From NCBI GenBank assembly GCA_963721805.1, contig CAVRJY010000001.1, positions 1,088,001-1,152,000 on the forward strand: DNA of 64,000 nucleotides, written 5' to 3'. Positions within the stretch are counted from its first letter, which is position 1, and each line of letters opens with the position of its first letter. The notes under the pieces are model-generated. The model made no database searches. It saw only the letters and a program-made list of their open reading frames with translations, and was not told where the DNA came from. This DNA is from Nitrospirota bacterium (GTDB taxonomy: Bacteria; Nitrospirota; Thermodesulfovibrionia; Thermodesulfovibrionales; JdFR-86). The position numbers and the translations under genes are program-made. Positions 2,876 to 13,088 of the stretch are shown here, piece by piece.

Positions 2876-3301
2876 ATGAAGCGTAAAGGTTCGGCGGTAT
2901 GGAAGGGCGGGATAAAGGACGGAAGCGGTACGGTTTCGACCGAGAGCGGAGTGCTCAAGGACGTGCAGTATTCGTTCAGCTCGCGGTTTGAGGACGGCAA
3001 GGGCACGAACCCCGAGGAGCTGATCGCGGCCGCGCACGCCGGCTGCTTCGCGATGGCGCTCTCCGGCCAGCTGGGCGAGGTGGGCTTGACGGCAGCGAGC
3101 CTGAACGTCACCGCGACCGTCGAGATCGAGAAATCAGGCGGGGGATTCACGGTCACGGCCTCGCACCTGGACCTGAAGGCGAAGATCCCCGGCGCTGACC
3201 AGAATACATTCGAGAAGGCGGCGCTCGCGGCCAAGGAGGGCTGCCCGATCTCGAAGCTCCTTAACGCGAAGATCACGCTGGTGGCCAGGCTCGAGGATTA
3301 G
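2876..3301 (+). CDS. osmC: OsmC family peroxiredoxin
   Basis: GTNPEELIAAAHAGCF and CPIS motifs; AGGAGG RBS; TGATACAAT extended -10 upstream. Confidence 0.92.
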   Translation: MKRKGSAVWKGGIKDGSGTVSTESGVLKDVQYSFSSRFEDGKGTNPEELIAAAHAGCFAMALSGQLGEVGLTAASLNVTATVEIEKSGGGFTVTASHLDLKAKIPGADQNTFEKAALAAKEGCPISKLLNAKITLVARLED

Positions 3302-3394: not shown

Positions 3395-4741
3395 ATGAGA
3401 AAGAAGGTCATCGAGGAGTCGGTCCTCTTCGTAAGCATACTTAAGTGGGTCCTGCTCGCGTCTTGCGCGGGGGCGCTCGTAGGCGTATCGACCGCGATGT
3501 TCCTCAAACTCCTCGAATACGCCAACAGGCTGAACCCCGACAACAGGTTTTTCTATCTCATGCCAGCGGCTTTTTTCCTGAGCGTGGTCTTAATCAAATA
3601 CCTTGCCCCCGAGGCCGAGGGCCACGGCACCGAGAAGGTGATAGAGGCCGTGCACCGCAGGGCCGGGAAGATAAACCCCCTGGTCGTGCCTGTCAAGCTC
3701 GCGGCCACTATCGTCACGATAGCTACGGGCGGCTCGGCAGGCAAGGAAGGCCCTTGCGCCCAGATCGGCGCGGGCGTATCCTCGATCTTCGCCGACATAC
3801 TCAGGTTCGACGACCGCGACCGCAGGAAGCTGGTCATCTGCGGCATCAGCGCGGGGTTCGCGGCCGTATTCGGCACGCCGATCGCGGGCGCGCTCTTCGG
3901 GGTCGAGGTCCTGACGGTCGGCAGCCTTCTGTATGACGTGCTCCTGCCGTCGTTCATCTCGGGGATCGTCGGGTTCCAGGTAGCCTCGTCGCTCGGGATC
4001 ACCTATTTCCATTCGCAGATCAATTTCATCCCGGTCTTCACCAGCGGATTTTTCCTTAAGGTCTGCATAAGCGGCATCTTCTTCGGCCTGTGCTCTTTAC
4101 TGCTTATAGAATCCATGAAACTCGCCGAGAAGGGCGCGGCGCTGTTGCATATCTGGAAGCCCCTGAAGGGGATCGTCGGAGGCGCCGCCCTGGCGCTGCT
4201 GGTCCCGTTCGTATCGGCCAGCTATCTGGGGCTCGGGCTCGATACGATCAAGACCAGCCTCGAGGGCGGGGTGGTGCCGGGCGTAGCGTTTCTGATGAAG
4301 ATGGTCTTTACGTCGGTAACTCTCAGCTTCGGCGGAAGCGGCGGCATCGTGACGCCTATATTCTTCATCGGGGCCACCGCCGGGAGCGCCTTCGGCAGGA
4401 CGCTCGGGTTCGACCCCTCGGTGTTTGCCGCTATAGGGATGGTGAGCCTTCTGTCGGGGGCGGCCAATACGCCGATCTCCGCGAGCATCATGGCCGTGGA
4501 GCTGTTCGGCCCGGCCGTCGCCCCATATGCCGCCGTTGCGTGTATAATAAGCTTTCTAATGACCGGACATAGGAGCATATACCCCAGCCAGGTGCTGGCG
4601 ATGGCTAAATCATCCTCGCTCTCGGTCTCCAAAGGCAGGGAGATGAGACACCTCGACGAAGTGGATTACGAGGGGCGCGAGGGCAGCATGGTCTCTCGCG
4701 CAAAGAGGATTAACCCGTTCGGGAGGCATCCTCATGAGTGA
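3395..4741 (+). CDS. ClC family chloride channel/transporter
   Basis: GKEGP, FGTPIAG and GGIVTPIFFIG ClC signature motifs; many TM helices. Confidence 0.9.
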   Translation: MRKKVIEESVLFVSILKWVLLASCAGALVGVSTAMFLKLLEYANRLNPDNRFFYLMPAAFFLSVVLIKYLAPEAEGHGTEKVIEAVHRRAGKINPLVVPVKLAATIVTIATGGSAGKEGPCAQIGAGVSSIFADILRFDDRDRRKLVICGISAGFAAVFGTPIAGALFGVEVLTVGSLLYDVLLPSFISGIVGFQVASSLGITYFHSQINFIPVFTSGFFLKVCISGIFFGLCSLLLIESMKLAEKGAALLHIWKPLKGIVGGAALALLVPFVSASYLGLGLDTIKTSLEGGVVPGVAFLMKMVFTSVTLSFGGSGGIVTPIFFIGATAGSAFGRTLGFDPSVFAAIGMVSLLSGAANTPISASIMAVELFGPAVAPYAAVACIISFLMTGHRSIYPSQVLAMAKSSSLSVSKGREMRHLDEVDYEGREGSMVSRAKRINPFGRHPHE

Positions 4742-5168
4742 CAGCAGACAGCGCGGTATGATGCATCCGGGCCTCGCCCGGGCCGCGACCTCCCTGTTTC
4801 TGTGCTATTTCCTGGTATACGCGTTTTCTCCCCTCTCGGCCGCGTACTGCCAGGATTGTTCCTACGACACCCCGCACATATACATCCTTGAACTCGTACT
4901 AGGCGCGCTTAATCGACAGCCTGACACCGCTGGCCACGCGAGCGACGAGAGGGCCCTGCTCAGGAAGTTTCGCGCCCTCGCCGCGGGCGGCTCGGGCAGG
5001 GACAATATCGCCCAGCAGATGACCCATTCGGGAGTGGGCAGCCGCCCTATGCCCGAATCGATGCGCCGCTGCGCGCCAACCGAAGACGTCCGCATCGCGG
5101 CCTTTGCATTCGACGAGATTTATGCCGGACATTCGCCGCCCGAAGCAGCCCCCGCTGCACAGGCATGA
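4734..5168 (+). CDS. Hypothetical protein with N-terminal hydrophobic segment, CxxC and C-terminal GHSPP
   Basis: Fills the gap between ClC and the pal-like gene and overlaps the ClC stop; exact start uncertain. Confidence 0.55.
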   Translation: MSDSRQRGMMHPGLARAATSLFLCYFLVYAFSPLSAAYCQDCSYDTPHIYILELVLGALNRQPDTAGHASDERALLRKFRALAAGGSGRDNIAQQMTHSGVGSRPMPESMRRCAPTEDVRIAAFAFDEIYAGHSPPEAAPAAQA

Positions 5169-5221
5169 GCCTGCCCCTTAGGGGCGGCGAATATCGATTT
5201 TATCGCAAGGGAGATACATCC

Positions 5222-5776
5222 ATGAAGGCTTCAGCGTTAATCATAACGATCCTGTTCGCGTTCGCTCTCGGATGCGCCCATAAAGAGACTGTCAAGCCGG
5301 CCGATACCTCCAAGGCCGCCTCCGCCACGGCAGCGCAGGCCAGCGCCACGGGCGCCGCTAATGCAGCGGCGGCAGCTAACAATGCCTCATCCAAGTCCGG
5401 AGCTTCGGCCGACCAGCAGGCGGCCGCGGCGCTCCAGGGCAAGCTCCACGACATCCACTTCGACTACAACAAGTCCGTTATACAGAACTCCGACAAGCCC
5501 GTGCTGAAGGACCTCGCCGCAACGCTGAAGGCCAAGAAGGCTCTGGGCGTCAGGGTCGAGGGCAACTGCGACGAACGCGGCACTACGGAATATAACCTCG
5601 CGCTCGGGGACCGCAGGGCGCGCGCCGCAAAGGACTTTCTGGTCGCGCAGGGCGTCCGGGCCAAGCGGATCAAGGCAGCGAGCAACGGCAAGGAAAAGCC
5701 GCTCTGTGCCGAGCATAACGAGGAGTGCTGGGCAAAAAACCGCCGCGACGCGTTCGTGCTTGCAGAGCATAAGTAA
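5222..5776 (+). CDS. pal: Peptidoglycan-associated lipoprotein (OmpA/Pal family)
   Basis: Lipobox ALGC, Ala-rich linker, EGNCDERGTTEYNLALGDRRA, NRR; AAGGGAG RBS. No tol genes adjacent. Confidence 0.85.
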   Translation: MKASALIITILFAFALGCAHKETVKPADTSKAASATAAQASATGAANAAAAANNASSKSGASADQQAAAALQGKLHDIHFDYNKSVIQNSDKPVLKDLAATLKAKKALGVRVEGNCDERGTTEYNLALGDRRARAAKDFLVAQGVRAKRIKAASNGKEKPLCAEHNEECWAKNRRDAFVLAEHK

Positions 5777-5789
5777 TTTTTGCGGATTC

Positions 5790-5826
5790 CGTGGGGCTCC
5801 CGGCTTATGCCGGGAGCCCCACGTTT
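5790..5826 (+). terminator. Terminator-like hairpin after pal
   Basis: CGTGGGGCTCCCGGC-TTAT-GCCGGGAGCCCCACG then TTT. Confidence 0.7.
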
Positions 5827-5936
5827 ATCTGCATCAGGCAGTAAATATTGACCGTTCATATGCATTCGAGTTACATTAATAAGTTCACTTCAAATATATA
5901 GGGGAGGATTTTGCATGCCCGGCGGGCCGTTTTAGT

Positions 5937-7583
5937 ATGAACTGCAGCGACAGATACAAACGGCTCATCGACCGCGGGCTCGTAAGCCCCGAGGAGCTCG
6001 GGAGGCTGTCTGAGGAATCACGCTCAAGCGGTGCGTGCATCGAGCAGGCCCTCCTCGACAGGGGGATACCGAAGCACGAGCTCCTGTTCAGCCTCGCGGA
6101 GTGCTACGGCCGCCCATTCGTTGAGTACGAGGAGTCCGTCGTCGTCTCGCATACGCTTGCGCGCACGCTGGACCTGCAGCGCCTCAAGCACGAGCTCTGG
6201 GTCCCGCTCTCGGCCGGGAAGGGCCGTGCCGAGGTCATCGCCTGCGACCCTTCCGACCCGCCGATGCTCGAGGAGATCCGGCGGCTGTTCCCCGGCGCAG
6301 AGGTCGATTTCTCGGTCGCGCTGCCGCGCGACATCGTGCGCATCATAGAGCACAACCAGGACCTGAACCCGAACTTCACGCCCACCGGGGGGCGCACCCC
6401 TTTGGCGAAGGTCAGGACGTTCCTCGCCGACAGGCGCTCGCTGATGTCGTGGTTTAGGACGTCGCTCGCCAAGGGCCGCACCGGGCTTGCGATGTTCCGC
6501 ACGGGCATATCGTTCACCGCGATTGCGCTGGCGCTGTTTCGGGTGTTCGGCTACGGGTGGCACAATATCATCGAGGCCGCGCTCATAGCCCTCGGCGCGG
6601 TGCTATTCTATGAGGGCGCCAAGTGGTATCACCCGGCGCGCAGCATCGGGAAGCAGGCCATAAGCTGCCGCGACACCGGAGCGACCGGGGGCACGACCGT
6701 GCTCGAACTGATCAATCCGGGCAACACCCCGGGCTTCGTCCGGTCTGCGCCGATCCCGGGCGCTGCCGGGCTCAGGGCCCTATGGGAGCGCCTCTCTCCG
6801 GTGATGCGCAGGAGGTTTCTGGCCTCGGACCGCACGGACTTCGCCGAGGAGCGCACGCTCCTGGCCTGCTACCGCACGGTGATGGCCAAGGCCCGCACCG
6901 GGCTTGCGTTCACGCGCTCCGGCATAGCGATGATCGGCCTCGGGGTCGCGTTTCTCCGCGCGTTTCCGGCTGGCGGGCCGTGGACGGTCTTTGACTTCGC
7001 GCTCATCACGGTAGGCCTTCTTATGACCGCCGAGGGGTTTTACTGGTATCTGCCGGGGCGCACCGCGGGCCGGACCTGCATGGTATTCATCAATGCGGCC
7101 GACTGCGCCCCATCGTTTTGGGACACTATCGTGCCGCCATCGCATAAGGGCGTGGACCTCGAGACGTTCCGCCACGGCCGCCCCCCGGTGCATGCCGGCC
7201 AGACGCCCGGGATATGGGCCACAACAGGCCACGCGCTCGAGCGCACGCTGCTTGCCGAGCGCAGAAACGTGATGGCCCGCCTGCGCACGGTCATGGCCCG
7301 CTCGCGCACCGGGCTCGCGCTGATCCGCACAGGGCTGAGCATCGCCTCGGTCGGCCTCGGCCTTCAGGTATATTTCGGCCTGGGCAACCCCTACTGGACC
7401 GCGTTTAACTCGGCCCTCATGATCACCGGACTCGTGTTTGCGGCAGACGGGCTTTACTGGCATGTCCCGGCCAACCGCATCCGCCGGCAGCTCCCCTACT
7501 GCTTCGGGGACATCGAGATCACGGTGCCGAATTACGGCGTTCCGTCCAACGAGTGGAAGAGGGCGGTCTTCAGGCATGGCTGA
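5937..7583 (+). CDS. GspE/PilB N-terminal-like domain fused to three DUF202-like (Arg-heptad + 2 TM) modules
   Basis: N-terminus LIDRGLVSPEEL...LAECYGRPFVE...VIACDP resembles T2SSE_N; three internal repeats R-x6-R...RTGLA..RTG, each followed by two hydrophobic helices ending G..W; no ATPase Walker motifs. Confidence 0.75.
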   Translation: MNCSDRYKRLIDRGLVSPEELGRLSEESRSSGACIEQALLDRGIPKHELLFSLAECYGRPFVEYEESVVVSHTLARTLDLQRLKHELWVPLSAGKGRAEVIACDPSDPPMLEEIRRLFPGAEVDFSVALPRDIVRIIEHNQDLNPNFTPTGGRTPLAKVRTFLADRRSLMSWFRTSLAKGRTGLAMFRTGISFTAIALALFRVFGYGWHNIIEAALIALGAVLFYEGAKWYHPARSIGKQAISCRDTGATGGTTVLELINPGNTPGFVRSAPIPGAAGLRALWERLSPVMRRRFLASDRTDFAEERTLLACYRTVMAKARTGLAFTRSGIAMIGLGVAFLRAFPAGGPWTVFDFALITVGLLMTAEGFYWYLPGRTAGRTCMVFINAADCAPSFWDTIVPPSHKGVDLETFRHGRPPVHAGQTPGIWATTGHALERTLLAERRNVMARLRTVMARSRTGLALIRTGLSIASVGLGLQVYFGLGNPYWTAFNSALMITGLVFAADGLYWHVPANRIRRQLPYCFGDIEITVPNYGVPSNEWKRAVFRHG

Positions 7584-8769
7584 GATGGAGGCATACAGAA
7601 GCCTCGTCACATGGGGCGCGGTAAGCGAGGAGGCGCTCAGAGAGGCCGATATCGGTGCGAGGGCACGGGGCATAAGCCTCGAGCGCGCCATCATCACCGA
7701 ACTCGGCGTGCCCAAGCGCACGATCGTCAAGGCCCTGGCGATACACTACGGCGTCCCTTATGTCGAATACGACGAGCGCATCCCCGTGCCCCCGAAACTC
7801 ATCGCGCACCTCGAGGCCGACCGCCTCTCGTCGGACAACTGGTTTCCGTTTTCGGAGGAAGGCGGCTCCGCCGTCGCCGTCGCGGCAGCCGACCCGCTCG
7901 ACGAGGCCATGAGGCAGGAGGTCCGCGAGAGCTTCCCTGACGCCAGCGAGATAAGGTTTCACGTCGCGCTCGAAGAGGACATCCAGTGGTACATACTCGA
8001 CTTCATGCACGCCCGTCCCGGCAAACTCGTCGGGACCGAGCGCACGGGGCTCGCGTACTGGCGCAACACTATGGCCCACTGGCGGACGCGTATGGCCTGC
8101 TACCGCACGGACCTCGCTCTGGCGCGGACCTGGCTTGCCGCGATGCGCGGCGGGCTCGGGCTGGTCGTCATCACGGACGCCCTGATACGCGCTGGCAAGT
8201 TTTCTTCGCGCGGCCCGCTGCTTGCGCTTCTGGGCCTGGGCGCGCTGATGGCTCTCTACGGGATATGGCAGTACCTCAAGATCAGAAAGACAAGCCTTAC
8301 GCCCCCTGGGGACCAGACGCTGGTCGAGGTGACGACGGCGACGGTGCATTTTCTGGAGAACTACGACAGGCTCGAGCACGCGTACAGGCCGCCCCTGAAG
8401 GGCACGATGCTGCACCGGCTGGTCGATTTCATCGAGCCGTACTGCATGATCCTCTATCCGCACCCAGGCAGCGTCGAGCGCACCCACCTCGCGCGCGAAC
8501 GCAACGTGCTCGCCGCCCAGCGCACCATTGCAGGCTGCTACAGGACGCTATACGCCCGCGCCCGCACCGGCCTTTCGTTCATACGCTCGGGGGTCGCGTT
8601 CTCCGCGGCCGGGCTGAGCCTGCTGCACTACTTCAAGGTCTCGGCCTTCTCCGCGGTCGAGGCCTCGCTGTTCGTGATCGGGGTTTTCATGATAATTGAC
8701 GGTATACTATGGTATCTGCCCGCGCGGGGCGAGCAGTCCGAGCTTACGCGCTGCCCGATACCGGAGTGA
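7576..8769 (+). CDS. Paralogous GspE/PilB N-terminal-like protein with two DUF202-like modules
   Basis: ATG 7576 overlaps the end of the previous gene; ALAIHYGVPYVEY...VAAADP N-domain; two Arg-heptad + 2 TM repeats. Confidence 0.75.
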   Translation: MAEMEAYRSLVTWGAVSEEALREADIGARARGISLERAIITELGVPKRTIVKALAIHYGVPYVEYDERIPVPPKLIAHLEADRLSSDNWFPFSEEGGSAVAVAAADPLDEAMRQEVRESFPDASEIRFHVALEEDIQWYILDFMHARPGKLVGTERTGLAYWRNTMAHWRTRMACYRTDLALARTWLAAMRGGLGLVVITDALIRAGKFSSRGPLLALLGLGALMALYGIWQYLKIRKTSLTPPGDQTLVEVTTATVHFLENYDRLEHAYRPPLKGTMLHRLVDFIEPYCMILYPHPGSVERTHLARERNVLAAQRTIAGCYRTLYARARTGLSFIRSGVAFSAAGLSLLHYFKVSAFSAVEASLFVIGVFMIIDGILWYLPARGEQSELTRCPIPE

Positions 8770-8778
8770 GACTATTTC

Positions 8779-10179
8779 ATGAAAATAGAAAACAAGATCC
8801 TCCTTTCGAACACCCTGAGCCTGGTGCTCATCGCCGTGATCGGCCTGTTTGCGATCAGGGAGACGAACCTCGTGCTGACGAAGCTCCACTTCGTCGAGAT
8901 CGCGGACGACCTTAACGCCTCGTTTCTCGAGATGCGGCTCTCGGAGAAGAACTATTTCCTCTATAAAGAAGCCGTGGACCTCAGGGACATCCTCGACAAG
9001 CTCGACTCGACCTACGGCACTATAATGTCCGAGCGCGAGAGCATCGAGCTGGCGGTCGGCCGCGATACCATCGACGAGCTTGTCATGCGCCTCAGCGAAT
9101 ACCGCAACGTCGTGGACAAGGTGCTCAAGTCCCAGGGCGACATCAGCGGAGCGCAGGAGCTTGTGCGCGAGAAGGGCAAGGCCCTCAGGACGTTTTCCGA
9201 CGACATCACCAGGGCCGAGCGTGATAACGTAAACCGCCTCGTATATAACGCCGCAAAGCTGATGCTGTTCGGTACGATGGCGGTCATAGTGATCTCGTTC
9301 GTGATCCTCCGGGTCATATCCCGCAAGGTATCGCGCTCGCTCCGCACGGTCGAGACCCTGGCCGAGACGATCTCGCAGGGGGACTTTCACCTCAAGGGCC
9401 TTGACGCCCCGTCAAACGACGAGGTCGGCTCGGTCATCCGCGCGATCAACCAGATGTCCGAGCGGCTGGCCGAGCGCGAGGACGAACTCGTGCAGGCCAA
9501 GAAGCTCTCGTCGCTGGGCATCCTCACGGCGGGCGTGGCCCACGAGCTCACCAACCCGTTAAACAACATCTCGATGACCGCGCAGACATATCAGGAGCTT
9601 TACGCCAAGCTCAGCGAGGCCCAGCGCATATCGTTCATGGCTACGATAGAGTCCGAGACCGACCGCATAAGGGACATAGTGCGCAACCTCCTGGATTTCG
9701 CGAAGCCCAAGGAGCTCGCGCTCCAGCCGATTGACATCAACGAGGTGATACGCCACACGCTCCCGCTCGTGCGGAACATGCTGGAGATATCGAACCTGGA
9801 CCTGGACCTCGACCTCCGGCCCGGCCTTCCGCGCGTGGTGATCGATGAGGGCCAGATACGTCAGGTGCTCGTAAACCTTATAACGAACGCGGCGCAGGCC
9901 TCCTCGCCCCGGATGAGCATCTCGATCTCCTCGAGGCGCGCCGCCGCGGGCGGCGTGGAGGCGTCCGTCTCGGACACCGGCAAGGGCATCCCCCAGGAGC
10001 AGGTCCCGCACCTCTTCGACCCGTTCTTCACGACCAAGGGCGAGGGCGGCACCGGCCTCGGACTTTCGATCAGTTATGGCATAATCAAAAAGCACGGCGG
10101 CGAGATCAGGGTATCGAGCACCGTGGGCAAGGGGTCTACCTTTACGGTAGTCCTGCCCTCGACGCCTGCAGTTAAATGA
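8779..10179 (+). CDS. HAMP-domain sensor histidine kinase
   Basis: Two TM segments, HAMP (DEVGSV), H-box AHELTNPL, N box NLITNA, DTGKGI, FFTTK, GTGLGL. Confidence 0.93.
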   Translation: MKIENKILLSNTLSLVLIAVIGLFAIRETNLVLTKLHFVEIADDLNASFLEMRLSEKNYFLYKEAVDLRDILDKLDSTYGTIMSERESIELAVGRDTIDELVMRLSEYRNVVDKVLKSQGDISGAQELVREKGKALRTFSDDITRAERDNVNRLVYNAAKLMLFGTMAVIVISFVILRVISRKVSRSLRTVETLAETISQGDFHLKGLDAPSNDEVGSVIRAINQMSERLAEREDELVQAKKLSSLGILTAGVAHELTNPLNNISMTAQTYQELYAKLSEAQRISFMATIESETDRIRDIVRNLLDFAKPKELALQPIDINEVIRHTLPLVRNMLEISNLDLDLDLRPGLPRVVIDEGQIRQVLVNLITNAAQASSPRMSISISSRRAAAGGVEASVSDTGKGIPQEQVPHLFDPFFTTKGEGGTGLGLSISYGIIKKHGGEIRVSSTVGKGSTFTVVLPSTPAVK

Positions 10180-10190
10180 TGGAGGGAAAC

Positions 10191-10550
10191 ATGAACAGCG
10201 TAATGATCATCGACGACGAGAAGATTGTGGGCGACATGGCCAAGCTCTCGCTCGAACAGGAAGGCTACGAGGTCGAGACGTTCACGAACGCAGAGCCCGC
10301 GCTTAAGCGGCTCGGCGAGCGCGCCTTTGACATCGTGGTCACGGACTACAAGATGAAGGGCATCGACGGCATGGAGGTGCTGAGGACGATCAAGCGGCTC
10401 TACCCTGGGACCAAGGTCATAATGATCACGGCGTTTGCGAACCTCGACACCGCTATCGAGGCCCTGCGCGCCGACGTCTTCGATTTCTTCCCGAAGCCGG
10501 TCAAGATCAAGGAACTCAAGGAATCGATCAAAAAAGCGCTCGCGGCCTGA
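10191..10550 (+). CDS. Single-domain response regulator
   Basis: IIDDE, VVTDYKM, ITAF, KP; GGAGGG RBS before ATG 10191. Confidence 0.9.
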   Translation: MNSVMIIDDEKIVGDMAKLSLEQEGYEVETFTNAEPALKRLGERAFDIVVTDYKMKGIDGMEVLRTIKRLYPGTKVIMITAFANLDTAIEALRADVFDFFPKPVKIKELKESIKKALAA

Positions 10551-10556
10551 TCCGGC

Positions 10557-13088
10557 ATGGACCACGCCTCGCCGTTTCGCGATGCCGTCGGGAAGCTCAT
10601 GCGCAAGGTCATGCCCCGGCGCGGCCGCGACGTCTCGGCCGTGTTCGAGGAGTTCCGGCTGGTGCTCGCCGCAAACAGCGAATCGCTTGACGCCATCGCG
10701 GATATGACCGACAAGCTCGGCGGCGAGTACATCTTCGACGCGGTCTACGTGCTTAACGCGAGCGACGCGATAATCTCGAAGGTCGGCCGCTCGGTCGAGG
10801 CCTTCCGCGCACTCACCGAGGGCCGCTACGACCTGGACGGCCCGTTTGCCTCGATCTCCTCCGCCATCGGCCGCATAGCCCGCGAGACTCGCTACGAGGG
10901 CACGCCCTCATACGTGCTCTCTTATCCTGATATAAGCTGGGAGCACTCGCAGGACGTCGGCGGCAAGAACTACCACCTCGCGCGGATGTCCCAGGCTGCC
11001 GGGCTCCACGTACCCGAGGCCTTCGCTATCACGGTCTCCGCGTTCGACCGGTTCATCAGCCATAACCACCTTGAAAATGCCATGGCCTCATGCGCCGGCG
11101 CAGAGGCATGCGCCATAGACGAGCTCAGGCGCGCGATAGCGGACGCCGAGGTCCCGCCCGAGGTCGCGGCGGAGATAACCTCCGCTCTGGCGCGTATGAG
11201 AGCGACCTGCCCCGAACCGTGCTTCCTCGCCGTCCGCAGCAGCGCCGAGGAGGAGGACGGGGAGTTCAGCTTCGCCGGACAGTTCGATACCGCCCTTAAC
11301 GTCCCGGCCGAGCCCGGCCCTGTGATGGACGCTTACAAGCGTGTGCTCGCGAGCCTGTATTCCGAGCGCTCGGTGGCATATCTGCGCGGGCTCGGGTATC
11401 CGCTAGGCTCGCTTCGGATGGCAGTGGCGTGCGTGCGTATGGTAGATGCGCGCTCAAGCGGCGTGGTCTATACCGCGCAGGCCGCGGGCAGGCAGGACCA
11501 GATCGTGGTAAACGCGGTCTGGGGGCTCGGAAACCGCCTCGTGGAGGGTGGGGCAGAGGCCGACCTCTACGTGTTCGAACGCGGGCCGCTCCGCCTTGGC
11601 GAGAGCCGCATAGCGGACAAGCCTATCAGCGTCTCCGCATCCTCTCAGGGCGGCGTCGCGGACGTCGATACCCCGGCCGGGATCAGAAATGCGCCTTGTC
11701 TCACGGACGCAGAGGCGATGGCGCTCGCGCAGGCGAGCCTCGATATCGAGCGCATGTTCCACGGCCCGCAGGACATCGAGTGGGCTATGGGCCAAGACGG
11801 CATGCTTTACATGCTGCAGGCCCGGCCGCTCAAGGTCGAGGAGCGCGCCAACGGAGGCGGGGCGCGGGCGGCCACGGGCGAGGCGCTGCTGCGCGATACC
11901 GGCTCGGTCGTACAGCCGGGCGTCGCGGCCGGGCGCGTCGTCATTCTTACGAACCCCAAGGACCTCGAGCGCGTCGCTCGCGGGAGCATCCTCGTTGCGA
12001 AGGCGGATTCGCCGCAGTTCATCGTAGCGATGCACCGCCTCGCTGCGATCATCACCGACAGCGGCTCGCCGACCGGGCATATGGCCTCGCTCTGCCGCGA
12101 GCTCCGCGTCCCCGCGGTGGTCAACACGCGCGCTGCCACGCACCTGCTTAGGGACGGGGCCGAGGTGACCCTGCACGCTGACACCGAGGGGCATTACGCT
12201 ATTTTCGAGGGCATAGACGAGGCGCTGCTGCGCAGCGCCGGGGGCTCGCGCGCCGAGGTCGAGCGCCTGTACGAATACCGCAGGAAGCGCTCGATCATGC
12301 GCTTCGTGACGCCGCTGAACCTCGTTAACCCTCTAGTGGACGACTTCCGGCCCGAGAGGTGCGAGACCCTGCACGACCTCCTCAGGTTCATCCACGAAAA
12401 AGCCGTGCAGGAGCTGATCGCGGTCTCCTCCCAGGCCGACCGGTCCAACAAGCCCCGCGACCTGAGCCTCCCCGTGCCGATGCGCATGAAGGTCATCGAC
12501 ATAGGCGGGGGCATAGCCCCGTCGTCCCCGGCGCATACCATGGAGGTGGGCGAGATCGTATCGGAGCCGCTTCGGGCCATAGTCGCCGGGATGGTGCGCG
12601 AGGGCGTATGGAAGCTCGGCCCGGCGGCCATGGGCGTGGGGGACTTCATGACGAGCATGATGCGCACCGACGACATTACCCAGCGCGGCGAGGACTACCT
12701 CGTAAACAACGTCGCGGTCGTCTCGGGCGAGTACATGAACCTGAGCCTCAGGCTCGGGTACCACTTCAACCTCATCGACTGCTACGCGAGCGGGCACGCG
12801 GCCCACAACCACATCTACTTCAGGTTCTTCGGCGGCGCGACGGACATGACGAAACGCTCGCGGCGCGTCAGGATGATCGAGACGATACTCAACGAGATAG
12901 GCTTCATATCGGACGTCAAGGGAGACCTGATCGTGGCCCGCATCTCGGGGCTCGAGAAGCCGGAGGTCCTGCGCATCATCGAGAGGCTGGGGTGCCTGGT
13001 GGCGTTCACCAAGCAGCTAGATACAGAGCTCGTAAGCGACGAGTCAGCCGCGGCCCATGCAAGGGAATTTTTGGAGCAGTATCCTTAA
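10557..13088 (+). CDS. PEP synthase/pyruvate-water dikinase-like protein (nucleotide-binding plus phospho-His domain, atypical termini)
   Basis: VGGK, AVRSSA, SFAGQF, PQDIEWA, LQARPL, phospho-His motif GSPTGHMASLCRELRVPAVV. Confidence 0.85.
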   Translation: MDHASPFRDAVGKLMRKVMPRRGRDVSAVFEEFRLVLAANSESLDAIADMTDKLGGEYIFDAVYVLNASDAIISKVGRSVEAFRALTEGRYDLDGPFASISSAIGRIARETRYEGTPSYVLSYPDISWEHSQDVGGKNYHLARMSQAAGLHVPEAFAITVSAFDRFISHNHLENAMASCAGAEACAIDELRRAIADAEVPPEVAAEITSALARMRATCPEPCFLAVRSSAEEEDGEFSFAGQFDTALNVPAEPGPVMDAYKRVLASLYSERSVAYLRGLGYPLGSLRMAVACVRMVDARSSGVVYTAQAAGRQDQIVVNAVWGLGNRLVEGGAEADLYVFERGPLRLGESRIADKPISVSASSQGGVADVDTPAGIRNAPCLTDAEAMALAQASLDIERMFHGPQDIEWAMGQDGMLYMLQARPLKVEERANGGGARAATGEALLRDTGSVVQPGVAAGRVVILTNPKDLERVARGSILVAKADSPQFIVAMHRLAAIITDSGSPTGHMASLCRELRVPAVVNTRAATHLLRDGAEVTLHADTEGHYAIFEGIDEALLRSAGGSRAEVERLYEYRRKRSIMRFVTPLNLVNPLVDDFRPERCETLHDLLRFIHEKAVQELIAVSSQADRSNKPRDLSLPVPMRMKVIDIGGGIAPSSPAHTMEVGEIVSEPLRAIVAGMVREGVWKLGPAAMGVGDFMTSMMRTDDITQRGEDYLVNNVAVVSGEYMNLSLRLGYHFNLIDCYASGHAAHNHIYFRFFGGATDMTKRSRRVRMIETILNEIGFISDVKGDLIVARISGLEKPEVLRIIERLGCLVAFTKQLDTELVSDESAAAHAREFLEQYP

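Follow-up and report, generated by a model that had tools for sequence, protein, structure and literature searches.

A coupled MshEN–DUF202 gene pair with five arginine-ladder modules in Nitrospirota, a candidate anion conduit or binding track

DUF202/YidH is, to our knowledge, a large prokaryotic family without an assigned function, whose only understood members are subunits of a eukaryotic polyphosphate (polyP) channel. As described in the excerpted texts of PMC9911596 and bioRxiv 10.1101/2023.01.27.525886, that channel, VTC, is a 3:1:1 pentamer of DUF202 units with three helices each, the five first transmembrane (TM1) helices forming the pore. The same excerpts place basic rings 7 residues apart on these helices (K24 and R31 of Vtc1; K622 and R629 of Vtc4), report ionic locks through the Glu of an E-R motif and find phosphate ions bound at the channel entrance, while a table in PMC12526157 gives PF02656, the DUF202 family, as the membrane domain of Vtc4. 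A second described element is the MshEN domain, for which an excerpt of PMC5013675 gives a cyclic di-GMP (c-di-GMP) site made of two tandem 24-residue motifs, RLGxx(L/V/I)(L/V/I)xxG(L/V/I)(L/V/I)xxxxLxxxLxxQ, with the Arg, Gly and Gln as key residues. Here we describe two coupled genes that combine both families. They lie in a 64,000-nucleotide (nt) stretch of a Nitrospirota genome (GenBank assembly GCA_963721805.1, contig CAVRJY010000001.1, positions 1,088,001 to 1,152,000; hereafter the window, to which the coordinates of the locus refer) and encode between them five DUF202 modules with long arginine ladders.

Gene 1 (5937..7583, + strand) was delineated from its open reading frame (ORF), Pfam matches and an AlphaFold2 model, and encodes 548 amino acids (aa): an MshEN-fold domain (residues 1–145, 5937..6371), three arginine-ladder DUF202 modules and a conserved C-terminal tail. 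In the modules, each a ladder followed by two membrane helices, arginine recurs at an exact spacing of 7 residues, six times in M1 (6378..6650, residues 148–238; ladder R153–R188), seven times in M2 (6777..7076, residues 281–380; R285–R327) and five times in M3 (7221..7487, residues 429–517; R436–R464). Gene 2 (7576..8769, + strand; 397 aa) likewise opens with an MshEN-like domain (residues 1–145, 7576..8010) and continues with two modules of six arginines each, M4 (8023..8295, residues 150–240; R156–R191) and M5 (8461..8736, residues 296–387; R302–R337), which brings the ladders of both genes to 30 arginines. Runs of at least five arginines at this spacing, of which the real proteins hold three (gene 1) and two (gene 2), arose by chance in 65 of 20,000 shuffles of gene 1 and 25 of 20,000 of gene 2. 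Within its ORF (7438..8769), gene 2 has an ATG at 7576 (MAEMEAYR...) that overlaps the stop codon of gene 1 (TGA, 7581–7583) by 8 nt; were a second ATG at 7585 used instead, the two genes would abut.

Both proteins exceed the Pfam cut-offs for both families. MshEN (cut-off 23.1 bits) matches residues 57–142 of gene 1 (E = 3.4e-11, 43.4 bits) and residues 58–141 of gene 2 (E = 2.8e-10, 40.5 bits), and DUF202 (PF02656; cut-off 23.4 bits) matches three stretches of gene 1 (E = 2.1e-11, 44.5 bits) and two of gene 2 (E = 1.2e-6, 29.3 bits). The ATPase domain that follows MshEN in secretion enzymes (T2SSE, PF00437) has no Pfam match in either protein. An AlphaFold2 model of gene 1 (predicted local distance difference test score, pLDDT, 76.9; predicted template modelling score, pTM, 0.64) contains three long helices, 153–204, 288–342 and 427–480, in each of which the ladder runs unbroken into the first membrane helix, followed by return helices at 210–238, 350–390 and 485–518. 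Two membrane helices per module are also compatible with a hydropathy scan and with an alignment of the five modules, which show 34–41% identity to the first. An initial, sequence-only reading of the window had described these features: the two domain similarities and the missing ATPase, three plus two ladders with two of them quoted letter by letter, two rather than three membrane helices per module, and the gene overlap. Every particular is confirmed, including the position of each ladder and both quoted strings.

Searches for relatives (8,000 candidates scored) returned 973 sequences for gene 1 and 879 for gene 2 at E ≤ 0.001. Among the best 120 of each, on which all homologue counts below are based, gene 1 relatives are 512–589 aa long and gene 2 relatives 394–426 aa; where named, they come from metagenome-assembled genomes of Nitrospirota, Thermodesulfovibrionales or Dissulfurispiraceae, and their annotations go no further than ‘YidH (DUF202)’ or ‘type II secretion protein’. 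Taking one genome per species gave 236 stretches with a gene 1 relative, of which 78 loci were kept, a few of them labelled Desulfobacterales, Deltaproteobacteria or Betaproteobacteria. In each of the 75 loci that are not cut ahead of it, gene 2 stands downstream of gene 1. At the junction, where start codons were picked by a simple rule, we estimate an overlap in 44 loci, a gap of 0–30 nt in 20 and of 31–100 nt in 7, and in the other 4 an extra paralogue stands between the two genes.

Counted with a hidden Markov model (HMM) built from M1–M5, the module arrangement is 3+2 in 68 of the 78 loci, while three modules were found in 120/120 best gene 1 homologues and two in 120/120 best gene 2 homologues. 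The remaining loci comprise four that are ended by a contig edge (L021, L044, L073 and L075), four with 3+3+2 modules (L023, L024, L027 and L053), one with 3+(1|2)+2 in which the middle gene is split (L015) and one with 3+1+1 in which gene 2 is split (L058). The extra three-module genes are 68–72% identical to their neighbours and form orthologue groups of their own at 73–85%, so that each looks like an alternative subunit, by analogy with Vtc2 and Vtc3 in yeast. The proposal that the locus supplies exactly five modules accordingly holds as a property of the pair and not of every locus, five of the 78 having an additional three-module gene. A gene 1–gene 2 fusion carrying all five modules was not found in a homologue search at 960–2,740 aa, which is weak evidence. 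That search yielded a single protein, P0241 (1,646 aa), which has two modules, a reduced MshEN domain and, at its C-terminus, a caspase-like protease domain of the CHAT type, and which matches half of gene 1 at 40% identity.

Conservation within the ladder is concentrated on one helix face. Across 58 module sequences (the five of the pair and 53 of 66 extracted from related loci), heptad position a is Arg in 58/58 at four ladder positions and position e is Ala in 51–57 of 58 at five of six ladder positions and in 47 of 58 at the sixth. Thr predominates at b, Leu or Met occupies d, and c, f and g are variable. The conserved face spans 160 degrees, which fits the expectation for a multi-helix barrel, and small residues extend it into the membrane helix; three of the modules have one more Arg, 14 residues further along (R202, R341 and R205). 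Summed over the ladder helices, the net charge counted from the sequence is about +34; a bundle of such helices needs anions.

A complex of gene 1 and gene 2 was predicted with a median interface score (interaction prediction score from aligned errors, ipSAE) of 0.73 (runs 0.74, 0.71 and 0.73), against 0.00 for the best of three controls. Of 157 solved complexes, 116 reached the pass mark, as did 2 of 215 mismatched pairs; these counts apply only approximately here, since self-built alignments were used. Contacts agree between the runs to at least 59%, with a partner pLDDT of at least 65. On the gene 1 side the interface comprises the long helices of M1 (153–203) and M3 (424–478), with just five residues from the start of M2 (284–291) and none from its ladder helix; on the gene 2 side it comprises M4 (153–203) and M5 (298–351). 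Contacts between M3 and M5 run through heptad positions g, a, d and e and those between M4 and M1 through a, b, e and f, one consistent cyclic handedness, and low-error pairs such as R450 with R170, T171 and A174 place neighbouring a-layers side by side. This pattern points to a closed parallel ring M1–M2–M3–M4–M5 of a single handedness, in which a (Arg) and e (Ala), the positions shared by both flanks, would face the axis. The heterodimer prediction, which had been proposed as a check on the five-part pore, thus passes its controls, with contacts that fit a closed five-helix ring holding arginines in its central a-layers. The low-error pairs also suggest a bond in which the invariant Thr is the acceptor and the Arg of the neighbouring helix the donor.

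Taken together, we hold it somewhat better than an even chance (about 0.55) that the pair builds a five-helix, 3+2 complex which, under regulation, conducts or binds an anion along its arginine lining. Genes 1 and 2 would be two subunits of one inner-membrane complex in which every module contributes a long helix, a cytoplasmic RTxLAxx stalk running on as the first membrane helix, and then a return helix. With one copy of each protein, the long helices would stand side by side in the cyclic order M1–M2–M3–M4–M5 as a parallel five-helix tube, surrounded by the return helices as an outer ring, for 10 membrane helices in total; on the predicted contacts, the three plus two hairpins probably join into a single five-part, positively charged tube like the VTC pore. 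Arg (a) and Ala (e) would line the axis, and Leu (d) and Thr (b) would pack on the two neighbours. Five complete rings of five arginines would follow one another at a spacing of about 10.5 Å, with partial rings beyond; the next layer, inside the membrane, would consist of the small residues A195, G334, S471, A198 and A344, and the outer mouth would carry a further basic layer of R202, R341 and R205. The result would share the architecture of the VTC pore but extend into the cytoplasm as a tube some 40–60 Å long, and would most likely act as a gated conduit or binding track for an anionic, probably phosphorylated cargo. About 10 residues separate each N-domain from the membrane-distal end of a ladder; given the modelled stalk, the two domains would therefore sit at the cytoplasmic mouth of the tube, in ring positions 1 and 4. 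They would most likely be docking sites for the receiver or the dikinase encoded next to the pair (below), and the neighbouring histidine kinase and receiver would supply control.

Set against VTC, which is assembled from three Vtc1, one Vtc4 and one Vtc2 or Vtc3, the pair shares the DUF202 Pfam domain and, by prediction, an assembly of five such units from unlike subunits. As in VTC, every unit would contribute its first helix to the lining of the axis, with basic residues at every seventh position and an E-R-T type motif, and a cytoplasmic domain would stand at the mouth. The pair differs in having two membrane helices per unit (AlphaFold2 model) where Vtc1 has three (PMC9911596, as excerpted), in what would be a long cytoplasmic tube of five to seven basic rings where VTC has two, in concatenating its units 3+2 in two chains rather than using five separate subunits, and in its placement in a bacterial inner membrane rather than the vacuole. 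It also lacks the SPX and TTM polymerase (PF09359) domains that are both present in VTC: genes 1 and 2 have neither, and PF09359 was not found in the 94%-complete genome, whereas SPX was looked for in these two genes only.

The N-domains retain the MshEN fold without its ligand site. The modelled gene 1 domain aligns with MshE-N (5htl_B) at Z = 14.4 and a root-mean-square deviation of 3.1 Å over 138 of 139 residues, and further fold matches include XpsE-N (2d28_C, Z = 13.3), 8pdk_A (Z = 12.4) and, by Foldseek, the GSPII-B domain of PilF (8pfa_A, E = 7.3e-5). The pair thus shares with the MshE, PilF, PilB and XpsE N-domains the whole MshEN/GSPII fold and the Pfam match, but its N-domains are not followed by an ATPase domain and have lost both c-di-GMP motifs. 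A relaxed form of the 24-residue motif, as given in the excerpt of PMC5013675, occurs in 0/120 gene 1 and 0/120 gene 2 homologues. The L-G positions of the motif are K-F in motif I and P-E in motif II, so that Phe and Glu replace the glycines, and Ser (motif I) and Tyr (motif II) stand in place of the closing Gln. The NCBIfam model of the motif, NF053729, scored 12.9 bits against a cut-off of 38, and the NCBIfam PilB model TIGR02538 remained far below threshold (14.8 and 20.6 bits against 675). The suggestion of the sequence-only reading that these caps confer regulation by c-di-GMP is not supported, given this loss. Domains of the same type bind protein partners in solved complexes, PilB-N with PilZ (7lkm_A, Z = 11.5) and EpsE-N with EpsL (2bh1_Y, Z = 6.5); given such docking, we read the N-domains as docking sites rather than nucleotide sensors. 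Gene 2 aside, the N-domains closest to that of gene 1 among sampled relatives (80–95 bits) belong to proteins of about 770 aa, and the one that was checked (L081:3512-5794) is a GAF–MshEN–T2SSE secretion-type ATPase. ATPases of this kind are the likely source of the gene 1 N-domain.

The pair opens a cluster of five genes on the + strand with gaps or overlaps of at most 9 nt. A sensor histidine kinase (8779..10179; two membrane segments, HAMP, HisKA and HATPase_c) starts 9 nt after gene 2; a receiver-only response regulator of 124 aa (10176..10550) follows, its start overlapping the kinase stop by 4 nt; and a dikinase of 843 aa resembling phosphoenolpyruvate (PEP) synthase (10557..13088) comes last, with a PPDK_N ATP-grasp domain, a swivelling His domain and a C-terminal domain of about 290 aa. 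To the left, the cluster is bounded by a terminator-like hairpin of 15 pairs (5790..5823, +) that closes an OmpA-family gene, followed by a promoter-like site (TTGACC, 18 nt, TACATT; 5848..5877, +), a match to consensus only, of which the region holds 3 against 1.4 expected. By tblastn at E ≤ 1e-5, at any position and with many loci ending at contig edges, the kinase was detected in 68, the receiver in 67 (mostly 75–85% identical) and the dikinase in 56 of the 78 related loci; in two of them (L065 and L073) kinase and receiver lie upstream on the opposite strand. At another locus (L054:8538-11156), a gene 2 homologue and a histidine kinase form a single ORF of 872 aa, either a real fusion or an assembly frameshift. 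The stretch upstream of the hairpin contains an OsmC-like gene (2876-3301), a ClC-type chloride channel (3395-4741), an ORF of 144 aa without a Pfam match (4734-5168) and the OmpA-family lipoprotein-like gene (5165-5776). Despite the anion-channel theme, we rejected ClC, OsmC and OmpA-family genes as parts of the system, as they occur in 3, 0 and 3 of the 78 related loci, respectively.

The dikinase shares its PPDK_N ATP-grasp and swivelling His domains with dikinases of the PEP synthase and rifampicin-phosphotransferase types, and its first 550 residues resemble PEP synthase (PDB 8a8e_A, E = 1.4e-59; 2ols_A, E = 7.6e-56), but it falls below every NCBIfam cut-off, the best PEP synthase model scoring 297 bits against 598. 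Its C-terminal 290 or so residues match neither PEP-utilizers_C nor any other Pfam family, and an AlphaFold2 model (pLDDT 70.2) found no PDB fold match at E ≤ 0.001, the best being 2plg_A at E = 9.7e-3. No PADLOC defence-system match was obtained for gene 1, gene 2 or the dikinase. Of 151 sampled genomes of the class, 17 contain a complete gene 1 orthologue, or 18 with one cut at a contig end, while the family of the dikinase C-terminal domain occurs in 94 and its closest type in 25. Enzymes of the cluster type often stand in tandem with a second paralogue about 31% identical to the cluster enzyme (L083–L087, G054, G012 and G046), and such tandem dikinases are preceded by a receiver even where the DUF202 pair is absent. 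As receiver and dikinase also occur without the pair, they form the wider unit, to which the membrane pair and the kinase are an addition.

Beyond the pair, the module profile, run against 1.84 billion representatives, recovered 2,943 proteins at E ≤ 0.001 and 161 at E ≤ 1e-10. Of the best 150, 10 have three full modules, 12 have two and the rest one or none, many of these being fragments; four or six modules were seen in none of the 150. One protein of 476 aa (P0329; Pfam DUF202 at E = 1.6e-30 in four stretches) reads as five RT-ladder-plus-two-helix units in a single chain. Single-module relatives have ladders of 5 to 20 heptads, for example 20 in P0264 and 16 in P0265; these two and two further single-module proteins (P0274 and P0263) repeat RTxLAxx 12 to 20 times ahead of two membrane helices. 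In P0270, a ladder of 12 heptads with its two membrane helices is fused to a receiver 46% identical to that of the cluster (E = 5e-35), and in P0350 one reading frame runs through a module, half a receiver and the dikinase; in a second lineage, these fusions link the module to both receiver and dikinase. P0350 looks like a deletion product; its cluster has four members, three of 623 aa and one of 179 aa. Three proteins with high profile scores (P0326, P0333 and P0368) were discarded as false positives, since they are soluble and their ER..LA heptad repeats lead into no membrane helices. The same genome also contains an ordinary DUF202/YidH gene of 138 aa (C2:628437-628682), far from the cluster, whose product has three hydrophobic segments as judged by eye. 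YidH-type single-domain proteins of bacteria and archaea share the Pfam family and the RT heptad with the pair (the 138-aa copy reads ...RRTHMANERTFLAWIRTS..., with three RT heptads), whereas the modules of the pair have five to seven heptads and no third membrane helix, are concatenated and are joined to an MshEN-fold domain.

These neighbours and fusions also feed the strongest competing explanation, to which we give appreciably less weight, namely that the pair is a signalling or docking device rather than a conduit: a rigid, membrane-anchored arginine stalk, or a sensor of cytoplasmic anions or membrane state, that would hold the receiver or dikinase and exchange information with the kinase. 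The three enzymatic and regulatory genes of the cluster, the fusion of a single module to a close relative of its receiver in P0270, the partner docking seen for MshEN/GSPII-type domains and the existence of receiver and dikinase apart from the pair are all in keeping with it, and ladders ranging from 5 to 20 heptads would suit a spacer as well as a pore. A spacer, however, leaves unexplained why Arg, Thr, Leu and Ala are near-invariant on one helix face, why small residues and a further Arg layer continue that face through the membrane helix, and why the module used is the one proven to form the channel in VTC.

Several observations nevertheless weigh against such a five-helix conduit. The ring and its inward arginines come from a list of contacts, not from coordinates, and the pass of the complex prediction may owe something to the model's memory of VTC. 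The best run levels M3 R436–R464 with M4 R156–R184, one heptad off the register given by module homology (R464 opposite R191), and a narrow lumen holding some 30 like charges calls for counter-ions. The second three-module gene in 5 of 78 loci raises the total to eight modules per locus. A profile of five module sequences run against PDB sequences retrieved no VTC chain; we rejected sequence similarity to solved VTC chains, the matches being at chance level only (nanobodies, a designed Kelch protein and Vipp1 at E = 3.8). The five-unit P0329 is a singleton cluster from a 2,020-nt contig, with no relatives in the metagenome scan and only DUF202 clusters, at 0.77–0.79, in the Atlas. Of the 25 genomes with the closest dikinase type, 8 gave no gene 1 match, and the 5 examined among these have a receiver and tandem dikinases without any ladder module. 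The sole cargo with a precedent is polyP, and searches of the 94%-complete genome detected neither PPK1 nor PPK2 nor the VTC polymerase domain.

Some of these points bear on the idea that no single closed ring forms, the proteins making larger or other assemblies (2:2, or with the extra paralogue) or splaying their ladders on the membrane where they would bind anionic lipid head groups. The 3+3+2 loci, the register offset and the mutual repulsion of 30 arginines lean that way, as do Foldseek and VIA-align searches with the whole gene 1 model, which listed MshEN relatives and then, for the helical part, generic or designed helical bundles, with VTC not listed. That miss does not exclude a likeness to VTC, the query being a 548-residue model and the helical hairpin a common shape. 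We consider an assembly of this kind unlikely: the contacts of all three runs are cyclic and consistent, a natural chain holds five units in one, and the three-module paralogues, in orthologue groups of their own, fit alternative subunits for one two-module partner. Splayed ladders would moreover offer only Leu (d) and Ala (e) as hydrophobic positions, too few for a helix on the membrane surface.

The original proposal, a bacterial VTC-like polyP channel whose MshEN caps gate on c-di-GMP, is supported only in part, and in its full form we find it unlikely. In its favour, DUF202 is the membrane domain of VTC, the pair supplies five modules in a predicted ring, VTC itself has heptad-spaced basic residues on TM1 and phosphate at its entrance, and the genome has one Ppx-GppA family gene (C1:1437184-1437999). 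Enzymes of that family also act on pppGpp, however; the c-di-GMP motif, even in its relaxed form, is missing from all 240 homologues, with NF053729 far below its cut-off; and polyP as cargo finds no support in a genome where neither polyP kinase nor the VTC polymerase domain was found. Across the class PPK1 was detected in 2 of 151 genomes, against 17–18 with gene 1 orthologues; we also considered a distribution complementary to that of PPK1, and with PPK1 rare throughout the class no contrast can be drawn. We regard as very improbable the furthest extension of the proposal, in which the five-gene cluster is a functional VTC analogue whose PEP-synthase-type dikinase, in place of the TTM polymerase, would make a phosphorylated polyanion (possibly polyP) and, docked on the MshEN domains, feed it through the tube across the inner membrane at a rate set by kinase and receiver.

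In a literature search, no publication on a bacterial MshEN–DUF202 protein stood among the titles and abstract openings listed. For the DUF202 family, the pair offers a natural, genetically fixed version of a five-unit assembly, encoded in two chains with a presumed 1:1 stoichiometry and repeating a strictly conserved, putatively pore-lining motif five to seven times, and it makes the idea of bacterial DUF202 pentameric anion conduits directly testable. It also exemplifies reuse of the MshEN fold without its c-di-GMP site, and, in anaerobic Nitrospirota and Desulfobacterota-type bacteria, connects a membrane complex with a two-component system and a dikinase family that has yet to be characterised. 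Should the cargo prove to be a phosphate polymer or another phosphorylated polyanion, the complex would represent a new bacterial export route.

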